Virus record (IMG/VR): IMGVR_UViG_3300045988_069160
Coordinates: 1 to 36,715 of that record
Length of the DNA stretch: 36,715 bases
Strand: one strand, 5' to 3'
Source of the DNA: a virus
A program made the translations under genes and the position numbers. Below the pieces are notes generated by a model. It worked only from the letters and a program-made list of their open reading frames with translations. It made no database searches and was not told the DNA's origin. The stretch's first letter is position 1. Each line of letters starts with the position of its first letter. Shown one piece after another: positions 1,138-33,725 of this stretch.

Positions 1138-2253
1138 TCACTCAGCGCCTTTGTCGAGGACGTTGATAGCGTTGTGGGCACTCTGCATGTCGGGATGGAT
1201 ATACCGCTGCGTCGTGGAGAACTTCGTGTGACGCATGATCTCTTGAATCAGGCTCGGCGCGGTCTTGGCCAGAGCAAGCGCTGTTGCCGTGGTATGCCGG
1301 CATGAATAAGGCGGCAGGTCACGAACCTTTGCCCGAGCGAGTGCGGCGTGGTACTCGGTATAGAAATTATCTGCGTTCATGCCGACGATATAGCCTTTTT
1401 GGCTTTTGACGTTGGAGAGAATATCCAGCACGAGCGGGCCGAGCCAGTCAGGATAAATCAGCGGCGTTTCTTTTCGCTTTTTGGTTTTTAGACCGCAGCC
1501 GATAATCTCGTGCGTATCGGTGTGGATCATGTCGGAGGTGCAGCGCAGCAGCTCTCCGGGCATCATGCCGCTATAAATCATCAGGAGCGGGAAAGCAACA
1601 AATTTGTCACCGCCGTCGTAAGCTTTCCACAGGGATTTTATCTCATCTTCGGTGAACGGCTTCTGTTCGGTCTCCTCCAGCGGCGGCAGCTCGATAAACT
1701 CGGCGAGATTCGTCCGCGCCTGCCCCTCAGCGACGGCACGTTTATATAGCTGCGAGAAAAGCGTTTTCATGTCCCGGGCAGGGTAAAACGTTTCGACCTG
1801 AGAATCGACGCAGCTTTGCAGATTGTTGATTGTCAAATCGAGCATGGGGACATTCTTCAGCGCCTCCATGCGTTTCCACGCGATATCATACGCACACTGC
1901 TTTGACTTCGACAGTGCGTTATAGGCGCTGGTAGACCACCCCTTGTAATAGTCGTTGAGCGTGGGGCGGTAAGCATCTTTTGCCTGAACCTCGACCGGAT
2001 TCGCGGCAAAGGCCAGCGCCGCTGTCTTGGACGGGAAGCCGCCTTTTGTGCTGCGCCGCTGGTGCAGATTCCCGGAGGCGTCCACGAACGTCTCACACGT
2101 CCACATGGCCGTCCACGTGCGCCCGCGTTTATATGCGGTCCCTTGGCCGTTGCCGCGCCCTCTGCGCGTTTGAGCGATCTCCTGCTTTGCACCGCAATAT
2201 AGGCAGTACGCGCTGATGTCAGGAATCTCCTTTTTACATTTCCGGCATTTCAT
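1138..2253 (-). CDS. int: Tyrosine recombinase / phage integrase with N-terminal zinc ribbon
   Basis: 371 aa. N-terminus reads CRKC...CLYCG. The C-terminal catalytic region contains YSCRHTTATALA and IMRHTKFSTTQRYIH (the R, HxxR and Y signature of tyrosine recombinases). Adjacent to the tRNA-fragment attP. Confidence 0.95.
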   Translation of the reverse strand: MKCRKCKKEIPDISAYCLYCGAKQEIAQTRRGRGNGQGTAYKRGRTWTAMWTCETFVDASGNLHQRRSTKGGFPSKTAALAFAANPVEVQAKDAYRPTLNDYYKGWSTSAYNALSKSKQCAYDIAWKRMEALKNVPMLDLTINNLQSCVDSQVETFYPARDMKTLFSQLYKRAVAEGQARTNLAEFIELPPLEETEQKPFTEDEIKSLWKAYDGGDKFVAFPLLMIYSGMMPGELLRCTSDMIHTDTHEIIGCGLKTKKRKETPLIYPDWLGPLVLDILSNVKSQKGYIVGMNADNFYTEYHAALARAKVRDLPPYSCRHTTATALALAKTAPSLIQEIMRHTKFSTTQRYIHPDMQSAHNAINVLDKGAE

Positions 2254-4457: not shown

Positions 4458-4500
4458 GCCCCGATGCGGTTTAATCCGCGTCGGGGCTTTTGTCGTTTTT
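4458..4500. terminator. Hairpin terminator between convergent genes
   Basis: GCCCCGATGCGG (4458-4469) pairs with CCGCGTCGGGGC (4476-4487), 12 bp including one G-U pair, followed by TTTTGTCGTTTTT. It overlaps the 3' end of the repressor gene. Confidence 0.6.
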
Positions 4501-4875
4501 GAGGTTCTCCTGATAGGCCTCGTAGGTGCGGCCGATGAAAGCAATGACGGTTTTCAGATCGTCGTTCGGCGTGGCCTTCAGTGCGTCAATGAAAGCGTTG
4601 ACTTCTGGGCTTGACTCACCGGCTGTGACGCTGGCCAGAAACACGGCGCGTTCCTGATCGGGAGTGAGCTGCATATACATTGAGCCCTCGCCGGTACGCA
4701 GCCACTCTTCACGGACGCGGAACTCGCGGCAAATCGAGCGGATGGTCTGATCACTCGGGTTAGACTTTCCGGATTCTATCGTACTACAGGACGAGGCAGT
4801 TATACCGATGCGCTCTCCGAATTTTTCAAGAGTCAGCCCCTCAGCCTTACGAAGCGCCCTTATACGGGTGTTCAT
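4471..4875 (-). CDS. CI-like repressor, XRE-family HTH
   Basis: The track ORF runs 4471-4884 from a GTG that abuts the AAGGGGG RBS. ATG at 4875 has better spacing (134 aa). HTH motif: LTLEKFGERIGITASSCSTIESGKSNPSDQTIRSICREF. The gene is divergent from the early operon. Confidence 0.9.
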   Translation of the reverse strand: MNTRIRALRKAEGLTLEKFGERIGITASSCSTIESGKSNPSDQTIRSICREFRVREEWLRTGEGSMYMQLTPDQERAVFLASVTAGESSPEVNAFIDALKATPNDDLKTVIAFIGRTYEAYQENLKNDKSPDAD

Positions 4876-4899
4876 CGGAATCACCCCCTTTCAACATGG

Positions 4900-4928
4900 A
4901 GTATAAGAGCTGCATCTAAAAATGTCAA
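4900..4928 (-). promoter_or_regulatory. Leftward promoter for the repressor gene
   Basis: Minus strand reads TTGACA (4928-4923), 17 nt, TATACT (4905-4900). Confidence 0.6.
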
Positions 4929-4978
4929 GAAAGAATTTAGATTATCCAACAAAAGGAGCTTGACTTTTTAGATAATCT
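4914..4978. promoter_or_regulatory. Three operator-like TTTAGAT copies
   Basis: TTTTTAGAT on the minus strand (4922-4914), inside the leftward promoter spacer. TTTAGATTATC at 4936-4946, between the two -35 boxes. TTTTTAGATAATC at 4965-4977, inside the rightward spacer, containing the palindrome AGATAATCT at 4970-4978. Confidence 0.5.
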
Positions 4979-4988
4979 GATTTATACT
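4960..4988 (+). promoter_or_regulatory. Rightward early promoter
   Basis: TTGACT (4960-4965), 17 nt, TATACT (4983-4988), upstream of the first + strand early gene. Confidence 0.65.
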
Positions 4989-5040
4989 TTGGACAGTCCA
5001 AAAAACAAATCAACTGCGAACACGAAAAGGAGACAAAACA

Positions 5041-5268
5041 ATGTGGTGTAAAGGAACTATCGTAGAATCTGGCGTCAAGTGTGAATACTGGGTGAAGCAC
5101 TACGAAGAGAAGAGCGAGGACTTCGGCCTGAACGGCGGCAGGATCAGCAAGCTGTCAGTCCGAATAGGCGACAGCTTCACCGCAAATTATGATCGCGGCT
5201 GGGACGTGTACCCCGAGGATGAAATCAGCAAGAAGGTCGTGGAGCAGCTCATAGCACGCTACAACTGA
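5041..5268 (+). CDS. Hypothetical immediate-early protein
   Basis: AAAGGAG RBS, 75 aa. It is the first gene after the early promoter. No HTH is evident. Confidence 0.75.
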   Translation: MWCKGTIVESGVKCEYWVKHYEEKSEDFGLNGGRISKLSVRIGDSFTANYDRGWDVYPEDEISKKVVEQLIARYN

Positions 5269-5295
5269 ACGGGAACGGCTTGAAAGGAGAGAGAA

Positions 5296-5583
5296 ATGAA
5301 AGAAGAAACCGCTTTGCAGATAATCCGCGCACAGATGGAGCGTTTGTCGAAATCAGCCGATTTGAGTGATGAATTGGAGCTGGGTTACATTAACAGGATG
5401 GTGAAGCTTGGGCGGTTGGCCAAGGCTTTGGACGGGGTAGTTATGCCGGAGTGGGCAGAAAGACACCTCGGCGAACTGGGGGGCCGACTTATTGAAATAT
5501 CGAGTAAAGAAATACTTCCCTCGGAGCGTCTGTGGAATGCCACCGATGCGATTATTGAAATTATAGAGGCGATATGCTTTTGA
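5296..5583 (+). CDS. Hypothetical protein
   Basis: AAAGGAGAG RBS, 95 aa, predicted helical. No motif recognised. Confidence 0.7.
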   Translation: MKEETALQIIRAQMERLSKSADLSDELELGYINRMVKLGRLAKALDGVVMPEWAERHLGELGGRLIEISSKEILPSERLWNATDAIIEIIEAICF

Positions 5584-5673
5584 CGCGTCGCCGGGCGGCA
5601 ATCCCCGCCCACCTTAATGCGGCCTTGCGCGAGAGCGCGAGCCGGTCACAAGCCCGGATAAACGCAGAGTGAG

Positions 5674-6021
5674 GACTAACGCGCAGGAAAAGAAAAAGAC
5701 GCCTGTGGTGGTTTCACAGGCATCTTTCCCCCGGCTTGTTTACCAGAGCTTTGTTGCATTGGATGTGCACAGCGGAGTTTCTTTACCGCGGCACGGGACG
5801 TGAGCTACCACGTCCGCATGAGCCAAGCGTTGAGCCGCCAACGCTTCTATGGCAACACCGTTCACTTGGGCAGCTCCGGACTGCCTACCCCATCGAGCAT
5901 CCCGCAGTTACTTTAGTCTGGAACTCAGGGGCAAAAACAGTGCTTCGCACAAGGCGCTGCACAGCAATCACTCCTTTCGTGATGGGATGTGCCAATAGTA
6001 ACACCGGGCTGCGCGTTAGTC
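5674..6021. repeat. Perfect 13-bp inverted repeat pair bracketing a 322-bp noncoding segment
   Basis: GACTAACGCGCAG at 5674-5686 is the exact reverse complement of CTGCGCGTTAGTC at 6009-6021. The interval has no credible ORF. Confidence 0.9.
5687..5723 (-). terminator. Intrinsic terminator facing leftward inside the inverted-repeat-bounded segment
   Basis: Stem GCCTGTG (5701-5707) / CACAGGC (5715-5721), extendable to 9 bp. On the minus strand it is followed by GTCTTTTTCTTTTC (complement of 5687-5700). On the + strand the tail is only ATCTTTCCCCC. Confidence 0.55.
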
Positions 6022-6069
6022 AATTCTTGTTAATAAAGCCCTGCTGGGCGTGAATGGAGGTAAACGACA

Positions 6070-6222
6070 ATGAGTGAAGAGATGAAGAAAGAACTTGAAG
6101 AGGCGATAGAGCAGCTCAGACAGCTGCCGCCGGAGAAGCAGAACATGTGCACGGGCTTTGTGCTCGGCGTCAACGCCACGGCGGCGCTCAAGGCCACCCA
6201 GCCCGCGCCGCAGGACAAGTGA
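6070..6222 (+). CDS. Small hypothetical protein (50 aa)
   Basis: Not in the track because it is under 60 aa. GGAGG RBS at 6056-6060, ATG at 6070. Product: MSEEMKKELEEAIEQLRQLPPEKQNMCTGFVLGVNATAALKATQPAPQDK. Its stop overlaps the RBS of the next gene. Confidence 0.55.
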   Translation: MSEEMKKELEEAIEQLRQLPPEKQNMCTGFVLGVNATAALKATQPAPQDK

Positions 6223-6233
6223 GGAGGCAGAAT

Positions 6234-6467
6234 GTGACATCCTCAGAAGCTCGCGATTGGCTTGAATCGCTGGACTGCATTGACCTCACACCGGAGCAGG
6301 CCGCGAAGGCGCTCAACTGCAACCCGCACGCGATCAGGCTGCAGGCACATGACGCTCCGGAGAAGCTCGGGTATCGCGTCTCAGTTACAAACCGCACCGT
6401 CAGGATTCCACGCCGGCCTTTTATAGAGTTCTGGTGGGGGTCTGCGGAGAATAAGCCGTCGGCATGA
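6234..6467 (+). CDS. Excisionase-type (MerR-like) HTH DNA-binding protein, candidate Xis or early regulator
   Basis: GTG at 6234 with GAGGAGG RBS 6 nt upstream; the track ORF starts earlier, at 6147. 77 aa. LTPEQAAKALNCNPHAIRLQA...RTVRIPRRPFIEFW fits the excisionase-family HTH pattern. Confidence 0.6.
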   Translation: MTSSEARDWLESLDCIDLTPEQAAKALNCNPHAIRLQAHDAPEKLGYRVSVTNRTVRIPRRPFIEFWWGSAENKPSA

Positions 6468-12304: not shown

Positions 12305-12340
12305 CGCGCCCGCCCTCCCCGCAAGCACAAAGTAGATTGT

Positions 12341-12369
12341 AAGGTGCTGCCGCGGACCGGCAGCACCTT
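12341..12369. repeat. Perfect 12-bp-stem hairpin
   Basis: AAGGTGCTGCCG, CGGA loop, CGGCAGCACCTT. No T-run follows on the + strand. Confidence 0.85.
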
Positions 12370-12402
12370 AGAGCCCACTTTGAGGCGGAGGATATTGAAA
12401 AA

Positions 12403-32307: not shown

Positions 32308-33015
32308 ATGGGAGTTATAGACAATGCCGCGGCATACGCGCAGAACATTGCGGCGGACGACAGCCACGGCTACGATCAGGCCGGCCGCTGGGGACCTGAC
32401 TACGATTGCAGCAGTCTGGTGATCTCCGCTTTCAGGAAAGCAGGGGTCCCGCTCAGCTGCACTTACACCGGCAACATGCGCGGGGACATGCTGAGGCATG
32501 GCTTCGAGGATGTGACCGGCAGCGTCGATCTCACGACCGGCGCGGGGCTTGAGCGCGGGGACGTGCTGTTAAACCATGTCCATCACACCGCCCTGTATAT
32601 AGGCGGCGGGCAGCTCGTACAGGCGAGCATCAACGAGTACGGCGGCACGACCGGAGGCCAGACCGGCGACCAGACCGGGCGCGAGATATACACGCGCGGG
32701 TACTATAACTACCCTTGGGACTGCGTGCTGCGGTACACCGGGGCAGAACCGGACACGGTGCCGGCCACAAAGAAGCCGACACGCTATGTCACCGTCGAGC
32801 TGCCCATGCTGGAGGACGGACAGACGGGCGTAGTCGTCGCCATGCTTCAGGCGGCATTGAAATATCTCGGTTATGATCCAAAGTGGATCGATGGCGAGTT
32901 CGGAATCAGGACGCGCAACATGCTCATGGCCTATCAGGCGGAGCACGGCCTTGAAGCTGACGGCATCTGTGGGAAAGACACGTACAAGAGTTTGATAGGA
33001 GGTGAGCGGAAATGA
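32308..33015 (+). CDS. Endolysin: N-terminal Cys-His peptidoglycan hydrolase (Amidase_5 / NlpC-P60-like) plus C-terminal PG_binding_1 domain
   Basis: 235 aa. N-terminal motifs: HGYDQAGRWGPDYDCSSLV...HHTALYIG. C-terminal repeat: LQAALKYLGYDPKWIDGEFGIRTRNMLMAYQAEHGLEADGICGKDTYKSL. Confidence 0.9.
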   Translation: MGVIDNAAAYAQNIAADDSHGYDQAGRWGPDYDCSSLVISAFRKAGVPLSCTYTGNMRGDMLRHGFEDVTGSVDLTTGAGLERGDVLLNHVHHTALYIGGGQLVQASINEYGGTTGGQTGDQTGREIYTRGYYNYPWDCVLRYTGAEPDTVPATKKPTRYVTVELPMLEDGQTGVVVAMLQAALKYLGYDPKWIDGEFGIRTRNMLMAYQAEHGLEADGICGKDTYKSLIGGERK

Positions 33016-33108
33016 CCAAGATACTGAGATACTGATATGAACCGGCAGGGAAAAGTAACTATACGCGCGAAGAATCTTAACTTTAGTCAAAACAAAGGAG
33101 AAACAAAA

Positions 33109-33606
33109 ATGAATGCACCTGACAAAGCCTTGCAGTTCAAGGCATGGATCGTCGCAGCTATCGCCTTCCTCACAGCATTGTGGGGCTGGGTCGGCTGGGC
33201 GGTAATCATCTGGATCGCCTGTATAGTCCTCGACTATGCTACGGGAACCTGGGCCGCGAAGAGCGCCGGGGACTGGTCGTCCGCCGTAGCAAGAGCGGGA
33301 CTGTGGCACAAGCTGGGCGAGATCGTCGCCGTGCTTGTGGCGGCGCTTTGTGATATAGCAATTAGTGTAATTATTAACGGAGCCGGCATAGATATCGGCA
33401 TAACGTTCGGGACGCTCATCACGCCGGTCGTGCTGCTCTGGTACATAATAACGGAGCTCGGCAGCATCATTGAAAACGCCGGTAAGCTCGGCGCACCTAT
33501 CCCGGAATGGCTTAAGAAGTGGCTCAGAAATTATAAGAATAAAATAGATTCAGATCATGAGCCGCCTGTTGAAATAATCGAGTCTGACGAAACTCAGAAC
33601 GAATAA
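33109..33606 (+). CDS. Holin (Phage_holin_4_1 / TcdE-like family)
   Basis: ATG at 33109 follows an AAAGGAG RBS. 165 aa with 3-4 TM segments. Contains LDYATG...WYIITELGSIIENAGKLGAPIPEWLKK. Confidence 0.9.
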   Translation: MNAPDKALQFKAWIVAAIAFLTALWGWVGWAVIIWIACIVLDYATGTWAAKSAGDWSSAVARAGLWHKLGEIVAVLVAALCDIAISVIINGAGIDIGITFGTLITPVVLLWYIITELGSIIENAGKLGAPIPEWLKKWLRNYKNKIDSDHEPPVEIIESDETQNE

Positions 33607-33725
33607 GCAACACGCGCCGCGTGCAGTCGAAGGCCTGCGTGCCTACGCGGGGTATTGATGTAAGCTGCACCCGGCGCAAACAGAAAAATCCTTGTAAACC
33701 GATAGACCGATAGAGAGGTATTGAC

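Follow-up and report, generated by a model that had tools for sequence, protein, structure and literature searches.

What occupies the gap between the first early genes of a temperate phage and its long early operon, and why is that gap spanned by an inverted repeat? We addressed this question at positions 5584-6069 of a 36,715-nt viral DNA (the whole stretch analysed, referred to below as the window), which is of the temperate phage type judging by its gene content. The gene order is divergent promoters, two small early genes, the gap, which begins right after the stop codon of a 95-aa gene, and then a long plus-strand operon. The landmarks around the gap are as follows.

1138-2253, minus strand: tyrosine integrase, the only recombinase found among the ORFs scanned, 3.4 kb from the cassette in the gap
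4471-4884, minus strand: CI-like HTH repressor gene (HTH_3 match)
4928..4900, minus strand: promoter of the CI-like repressor, divergent from the 4960 promoter (scan, 11/12)
4960..4988, plus strand: early promoter, TTGACT-17-TATACT (promoter scan, 10/12 match)
6056..6072, plus strand: ribosome-binding site GGAGG and ATG of the first gene of the long operon (50-aa ORF, 6070-6222)

Further HTH regulators are present besides the CI-like repressor at 4471-4884. Between 6070 and the right arm of the inverted repeat, neither a scan nor inspection by eye revealed a convincing promoter on the plus strand; the transcript started at 4960 must, therefore, read through the gap to reach the operon. In two relatives of the window (L075 and L080) the early promoter is found ~40-50 nt upstream of the left arm of the repeat, so that the operon transcript must cross the cassette there too. 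It is reasonable to suppose that the gap may gate the delayed-early operon.

For comparison we used 32 related contigs, drawn from gut metagenomes and from MAGs of Oscillospiraceae and Clostridiales, which were recovered via homologues of the flanking 95-aa and 50-aa ORFs (for the 50-aa ORF at 6070-6222, P0005-P0016) together with DNA patterns. Scans of metagenomes and genomes with 17-mers returned mostly chance matches, and were filtered by requiring the core of the twister ribozyme described below. A distant-mode blastn search of GenBank phages with positions 5000-6300 gave no match, no relatives of the 95-aa ORF were found in IMG/VR, and a right-flank pattern for cassette-less relatives gave chance matches only, besides the known L010 and L037.

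The original prediction for this DNA saw no credible ORF in the gap, and this was borne out: gene callers placed no gene there in four relatives (L004, L006, L008 and L009). A small protein was considered and rejected, as indels of 1, 3 and 4 nt in relatives disrupt the frame of the 105-aa ORF starting at TTG, which is not conserved. No tRNA or tmRNA was found. The local hairpins that had been listed (5701-5721, 5796-5815, 5825-5846, 5869-5885 and 5967-5983) are all present on direct reading, and a repeat search lists hairpins at 5695-5727 and 5825-5846.

Rfam scans of both strands explained the region by two known families, a FuFi-1 motif on the minus strand and, on the plus strand, a twister ribozyme of type P1, 12 nt apart. 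We hold these two identities, and the strand of each, with high confidence. The minus-strand gene is made up of the following elements.

6023..5995, minus strand: sigma-70-type promoter of the FuFi-1 gene (scan)
5906..5988, minus strand: inferred 5' extension of the FuFi-1 transcript, between the predicted start at ~5988 and the Rfam match
5905..5693, minus strand: FuFi-1 motif, RF02986 (66.9 bits against a threshold of 59.6, model positions 1-175)
5727..5687, minus strand: intrinsic terminator of FuFi-1, aligning to RF02986 model positions 141-175 (terminator stem and UU)

The FuFi-1 match has an E-value of 2.8e-12 on the whole window and was obtained on the minus strand only. The conserved blocks AUAGAAG, UGCA and GGUAAACAA are present. 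Among relatives, L006 scores 62.8 bits, and a second sequence variant of the motif (variant B) scores 48-52 bits (E ~1e-8). The promoter comprises a -35 element TTGACT (6023..6018), a 17-nt spacer and a TG-extended -10 element TACTAT (6000..5995), and both elements are kept in relatives, even in those with a different cargo behind them (L018, L091, L094 and L095). At the other end of the gene, the terminator has a 13-bp stem (5727..5715 with 5707..5695) and a U-tract (5694..5687; UUCUUUUC on the minus strand). The stem holds a U.G pair, whose plus-strand counterpart is the mismatch C.A, and the terminator is more stable on the minus strand in 25 of 26 relatives; a simple terminator scan did not list this hairpin. 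The original prediction had correctly described a backwards-facing hairpin with a U-run on the minus strand only, and was wrong in supposing that there was no minus-strand gene for it to end: it is the terminator of the FuFi-1 RNA gene itself. Promoter and terminator together predict a minus-strand RNA of ~300 nt, running from ~5988 to ~5688.

The P1 stem of FuFi-1 (model 1-7 with 47-53) is poorly formed in the window, with several non-canonical pairs flagged in the alignment, and one stem of the motif carries a ~45-nt insertion (the hairpin at ~5796-5815). The 5' extension (5906..5988) is almost invariant among close relatives and is lineage-specific. When the minus-strand RNA was folded with RNAalifold, the 5' extension paired instead of P1, the Rfam structure was not reproduced and the covariation term was -0.92 kcal/mol; given the missed Rfam structure and the little covariation, we claim no structure for the extension. 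The FuFi-1 family is conserved and terminator-ended, has no assigned role, is reported not to have self-cleaved, and was described as having 'properties suggesting a sophisticated biochemical function' (Weinberg et al. 2017, PMC5737381).

The plus strand of the gap carries, directly after the two early genes, the following two elements.

5593..5610, plus strand: 6-bp GC hairpin, GGGCGG-CAATCC-CCGCCC (direct reading), abutting the twister
5611..5675, plus strand: type-P1 twister, RF03160 (full-length match to model 1-68, 63.4 bits, E 9e-14)

The twister score is 3.8 bits under the Rfam threshold of 67.2 bits. The shortfall is explained by the T1 pseudoknot, in which the P4 loop reads CAC and the 3' strand GUG in place of the consensus CCC/GGG, a covarying pair. 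Indeed, among 31 twisters collected from viral contigs the middle bases of T1 covary almost perfectly (CAC-GAGUG, CCC-GAGGG and CGC-GAGCG; one G.U), and the A-U form is the commonest of those sampled; CAC/GUG is invariant in all relatives with a twister of the window's type. The other conserved twister positions all match (UAA, GCC, CGGUC-CAAGCCCGG, UAAA and GAG-G), and P1, P2, P3 and P4 are present, P1 with only 3 bp. By analogy with characterised twisters, we take the cleavage site to be U5615/A5616. The stem at 5593..5610 is conserved in relatives, with a different loop in L006, and a hairpin is found directly 5' of most of the 31 phage twisters sampled. After cleavage at the predicted site, this hairpin would be the 3' end structure of the upstream mRNA. 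The reason why bacteria and phages carry twisters is still open (PMC6765202).

The RNA gene is framed by the two arms of the inverted repeat.

5674..5686, plus strand: left arm, GACTAACGCGCAG, overlapping the last 2 nt of the twister and ending 1 nt before the FuFi-1 U-tract
6009..6021, plus strand: right arm, CTGCGCGTTAGTC, comprising the last 4 nt of the -35 element and 9 nt of the spacer of the minus-strand promoter

The repeat thus brackets the RNA gene exactly, with the right arm lying on -35 and spacer and the left arm following the terminator. The arms are exact reverse complements (13/13), with 322 nt between them. The expectation that such a repeat would be rare by chance was confirmed: among 1000 dinucleotide shuffles of 5584-6069, 2 produced a perfect inverted repeat at least 13 nt long, none of 1000 shuffles of 5400-6300 did so, and the whole 36.7-kb window has only three loci with inverted repeats of at least 13 nt and arms no more than 600 nt apart. 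The repeat is also conserved in homologous phages, as each of the 32 module-bearing relatives has it, whatever its cargo.

The relatives provide a range of natural variants. Close relatives have the same twister, the same arms and the same FuFi-1, the latter in two sequence variants (A and B). The repeat is 13, 14, 18 or 27 bp long and is extended on either side; in the L008 type, a 13-nt insertion creates an 18-bp repeat. Indels are concentrated where the left arm meets the interior, at its inner edge, and L016 and L028 have a second terminator exactly at this edge. Four relatives (L018, L091, L094 and L095) carry an unrelated 171-nt cargo, with its own terminator, between the same arms and behind the same promoter; nothing in Rfam matches the L018 cargo, whose fold signal is weak (z = -1.7). 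In L070, L077 and L095, the left arm has a different twister (CGC/GCG type) beside it. Six relatives (L073-L076, L079 and L080) are without a twister and have the early promoter, a short leader and then a 27-nt repeat around FuFi-1 (GTTCCCGCGGATAGACTAGCGCACAGG / CCTGTGCGTTAGTCAATCCGCGGGAAC), the outer 12 bp of which are replaced by the twister in many other relatives. FuFi-1 is truncated in L073 and L076 and the cargo is almost deleted in L077, and the arms are kept in all three; L081 and L082 have the right arm and promoter only.

The original prediction saw in the repeat the possible borders of an invertible switch, in which a recombinase flips the 322-bp segment so that the terminator, now assigned to FuFi-1, faces rightward and blocks read-through to the 6070 operon. 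The size and layout are those of known invertons, with repeats of 13-27 bp on either side of a 190-377-bp stretch in which both a promoter and a strong terminator lie; the phage has a tyrosine recombinase gene, the indels gather at the inner edge of the left arm, and the arms are kept complementary by compensatory changes (described below), which would also be expected of recombination sites. However, a flipped cassette, the left junction of which would read GTGAGGACTAACGCGCAGCCCGGTG, was found in 0 of 32 related contigs assembled from different samples: judged on these assembled contigs, every one with both arms has the cassette in the same orientation relative to its flanks. Furthermore, arm length changes by extension on either side, often with the outer 12 bp replaced by the twister, and such variability is more in keeping with an RNA helix than with a recombinase site. 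Left-specific arm variants (G at arm position 6, and A replacing the -35 T) and right-specific ones stay on their own sides across diverged relatives, which argues against exchange between the arms. Arms also remain without a promoter, or with almost no cargo left to flip (L073 and L077), and the ORFs checked in the left 8 kb included no dedicated invertase; a host enzyme might act in trans. With no flipped copies among the assembled contigs, variable arm length, side-specific variants and no invertase among those ORFs, the invertible switch gains no support, and we consider it very unlikely.

The pattern of substitutions in the arms suggests that the repeat itself is under selection. Across 20 distinct arm pairs, 97.5% of the cells pair on the plus strand, as opposed to 21-35% when the partners are slid by 1-3 columns; shuffle statistics overstate the support here, because the relatives are phylogenetically related. 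At one compensatory position, these 20 pairs are A-U in 10 cases, G-C in 8 and G.U in 2 (the window has G-C, L018 and L009 have G.U, and ten sequences have A-U); at a second one, they are G-C in 13 and C-G in 3. An uncompensated A.G mismatch occurs in the arms of L009, L010 and L024. Since the compensatory changes fall at promoter-spacer positions, which the promoter does not constrain, the repeat appears to be maintained as a repeat.

These changes bear on the proposal that the repeat has no function of its own and is a by-product of the insertion or exchange of RNA-gene cassettes (either marking the border of a module or left over as an inverted copy of the promoter), with arms kept only through their constrained flanks, the twister and the promoter. 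The right arm is part of a promoter, whose function partly explains its conservation, and the left arm touches the invariant twister; the interior is a mosaic of two FuFi-1 variants, foreign cargo and extra terminators, and other phages have FuFi-1 without a bracket. The proposal does not easily account, however, for compensatory changes in the promoter spacer, for the twister-less relatives, in which the left arm adjoins no constrained element and yet the repeat is longer (27 bp), or for the arms kept after cargo loss in L077. We regard it as unlikely, while still worth keeping in view.

The phages in question (L001/L002, L003 and L114) carry FuFi-1 antisense in the early operon beside the repressor switch, directly after the early promoter or the first cro-like gene, so that the same position of FuFi-1 is found in four phage lineages, the window's included. 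Lambda OOP RNA has a similar antisense position in the early operon. No inverted repeats surround FuFi-1 in L001, L003 or L114, and a bracket stem around it scored no better there than in shuffles; a 7-nt match seen by eye in L114 was taken as chance, the bracket not being above shuffles. The stem is, thus, not needed for FuFi-1 as such. A FuFi-1 pattern with a canonical-length gap had 0 matches in viral contigs, and a looser pattern had 39 loci, among which only L114 is a true FuFi-1, the others being AT-rich coding sequence. L001 and L002 also carry a hammerhead ribozyme on the operon strand, 2.3 kb from FuFi-1.

Could the arms be binding sites instead, occupied by a single DNA-binding protein, of phage or host origin, that regulates the FuFi-1 promoter, perhaps through DNA looping? 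That the right arm covers the -35 element and spacer, and that the arms are identical asymmetric 13-mers, would be in keeping with this. Yet no third copy of the arm, or any further one, was found in the window at up to 2 mismatches, and by eye it bears no relation to the operator-like repeats of the main switch (TTAGATAATC type, 4938-4980). Moreover, the arm is not palindromic, the G versus A differences between the arms persist, and arm length varies. Control of this kind seems to us highly improbable.

The strand on which the repeat would act can be judged from wobble pairs and folding energies. Thirteen arm cells are G.U on the plus strand and, hence, C.A on the minus strand. The plus-strand arm duplex is more stable than the minus-strand one in 21 of 23 arm pairs, and, by our own tally, the independent strand-informative transitions in the arms are few, with ~5 that keep a wobble pair on the plus strand as opposed to 2 on the minus strand. 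The minimum-energy fold of plus-strand 5584-6075 contains the arm stem (z = -3.6 against shuffles), and the minus-strand fold has an equal z-score. The interior, in turn, folds better on the minus strand in all 26 distinct interiors. The arms and the interior, therefore, differ in their preferred strand, plus for the former and minus for the latter, which fits a minus-strand RNA gene inside a plus-strand stem. We put the chance that the repeat forms a long-range stem in the plus-strand transcript at slightly better than even. In the lineage of the window, the stretch 6022-6031 on the right flank is also able to base-pair with the twister's 3' half, a minor hint that the RNA might refold after cleavage.

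The same data speak to the second reading offered by the original prediction, namely that the plus strand encodes a large, functional and structured RNA, some 350 nt in size, with the repeat as its closing helix. The fold that includes the closing stem and the strand preference of the arms are consistent with it, and this part of the claim has stood: the repeat is probably a long-range plus-strand helix, as arm pairing and duplex stability suggest. The part concerning the interior has not. The interior matches FuFi-1 on the minus strand only, has its promoter and terminator there and folds better there without exception, pointing to selection as a minus-strand RNA; the fold statistic of the plus strand is equalled by that of the minus strand, and the interior has been swapped or deleted without loss of the arms. 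A functional plus-strand RNA of this size is, in our view, very improbable.

On balance, we consider probable a scheme that combines a twister cut, a minus-strand FuFi-1 gene and a plus-strand bracket stem; its cleavage, transcript ends, in vivo stem and regulatory effect are all predicted from sequence. The twister would cleave the early transcript from the 4960 promoter at the predicted U5615/A5616 site, leaving the upstream two-gene mRNA to end in the GC hairpin, and the RNA downstream would begin at a fixed point, with 58 nt separating its 5' end from the left arm. Where relatives lack the twister, the predicted transcription start is a comparably short distance upstream of the arm. The arms would then pair in the read-through transcript and loop out a ~320-nt antisense image of the RNA gene, and the resulting stem would bring the twister-made 5' end near the ribosome site of the next gene. 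FuFi-1 itself would be transcribed head-on against the early operon transcript, in the manner of lambda OOP RNA.

A more general proposal, which we make tentatively and hold to be possible more than probable, is that the locus is a modular control cassette. An exchangeable antisense RNA gene (FuFi-1 or the 171-nt RNA) would sit in the leader of the early operon, insulated within the sense transcript by the 13-27-bp stem, which may serve as an RNase III-type stalk; where extra genes lie upstream, a preceding twister would reset the 5' end. If true, the cassette would amount to a 'ribozyme insulator' of natural origin, and both twister and FuFi-1 would have a definite part in the lysis-lysogeny decision. 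Should no more than the unremarkable portion of our interpretation hold, known RNA families still account for the region, and it is not a DNA switch. Both RNAs belong to known families; for the composite module (twister or extended stem, bracket helix and exchangeable antisense RNA gene) we found no earlier description in the sources consulted. Its natural variants, with no twister or with swapped, truncated or near-deleted cargo, constitute a comparative and experimental series, which could be used to probe FuFi-1 as a convergent or antisense regulator of early genes, the twister as a setter of mRNA ends, and the contribution of the stem.

Several known systems resemble parts of this arrangement. 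Like E. coli fimS, the cwpV and flgB switches of C. difficile and gut invertons, the cassette has short inverted repeats around a few hundred bp with a promoter and a terminator; it differs from them in the 0 of 32 flipped copies, in the lack of an adjacent invertase among the ORFs checked and in its variable arm length. A long-range stem around a large insert is also found in rRNA precursors, whose stems are substrates of RNase III, and in synthetic insulators of the RiboJ kind a self-cleaving ribozyme sets the 5' end whatever lies upstream; we draw both parallels as analogies only. Lambda OOP and P22 sar are closer in genetic position, being short RNA genes with their own promoter and terminator, directed head-on into the early operon and close to the repressor/cro switch. 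In contrast to them, FuFi-1 is conserved and highly structured, is not a simple complement and overlaps no coding sequence here, and its regulatory role is putative.

Within its own family, the window's FuFi-1 has a full-length match above threshold, the conserved blocks, the 3' terminator and a prophage setting, and departs from the family description in the ~45-nt insertion, the weak P1, the ~83-nt 5' extension, the inverted-repeat bracket and the neighbouring twister. The twister shares with type-P1 twisters the stems, the conserved nucleotides, the T1 interaction (via an A-U exchange), the intergenic setting in a phage and the 5' hairpin. In the other phage twisters sampled, a ribosome-binding site often follows within tens of nucleotides, whereas in the window a 335-bp RNA-gene cassette is interposed.

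Immediately 3' of the right arm of the 13-bp inverted repeat, the sub-lineage formed by contigs L097-L103, L105 and L106 carries a different flank (AATTCGAGGGAAG), and a 114-aa gene is inserted between this arm and the 50-aa ORF that begins the early operon (for example, L097 1126-1470). The fixed boundary of the module is, thus, the right arm rather than the sequence downstream of it. What stands between the arms also varies. A predicted RNA gene of about 171 nt takes the place of FuFi-1 between the same arms in contig L018 (2453-2623, + strand), and L091, L094 and L095 have this same cargo. It has the same promoter and first 7 nt as the FuFi-1 gene and a terminator of its own. The L018 cargo had no match in Rfam, and its fold was weakly better than those of shuffled sequences (z = -1.7). 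At the other end of the module, a 1108-nt Logan contig (L007) breaks off within the left arm (…GAGTGAGGACT). This end may reflect a branch of the assembly graph at the cassette boundary, in which case mixed cargo variants or both orientations may have been present in that sample, or it may simply reflect low coverage.

In the plus-strand RNA, the flank 3' of the right arm (6022-6031, AAUUCUUGUU) is able to pair, G.U pairs included, with 5661-5670 (AACGCAGAGU), which belongs to the 3' half of the twister ribozyme. The predicted pairing can lengthen the long-range stem at the cost of the ribozyme fold; it could represent refolding after cleavage, or chance.

Besides the arms, the window contains only two perfect inverted repeats of at least 13 nt (halves no more than 600 nt apart):

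876-919, 17-bp hairpin between an upstream ORF and the end of the integrase gene
12340-12370, 13-bp hairpin with a 5-nt loop, within the replication-gene region

A TTAGATAATC-like motif recurs as inverted copies at 4938-4980, where it overlaps the divergent promoters that separate the repressor gene from the early genes. These copies probably serve as operators for the repressor; judged by eye, they are unrelated to the 13-bp arms.

A further Rfam RNA motif, DUF3800-VIII, was found at:

window 33613-33678, + strand, 42.1 bits (threshold 40.2)
contig L025 1235-1300

In the window it begins 7 nt beyond the holin gene (33037-33606), which itself closely follows the endolysin gene (32308-33015). 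None of the neighbouring genes that were checked was seen to encode a DUF3800 protein.

Other phage lineages carry FuFi-1 without the bracket stem. In one (L001/L002), a high-scoring FuFi-1 (135 bits) lies 2.3 kb from a type II hammerhead ribozyme and on the opposite strand to it:

L001 9879-9947, - strand (early-operon strand), type II hammerhead
L002 4845-4913, - strand (early-operon strand), type II hammerhead

This is, therefore, a second, unrelated phage in which a self-cleaving ribozyme and FuFi-1 co-occur. Three unrelated phages have FuFi-1 antisense in the early operon, beside an HTH repressor/cro-like pair:

L114 1376-1994 (FuFi-1 directly follows the early promoter)
L003 4354-5321
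L001 11300-13651

This arrangement suggests that a placement resembling that of OOP, the antisense RNA of phage lambda, is general to the FuFi-1 family.
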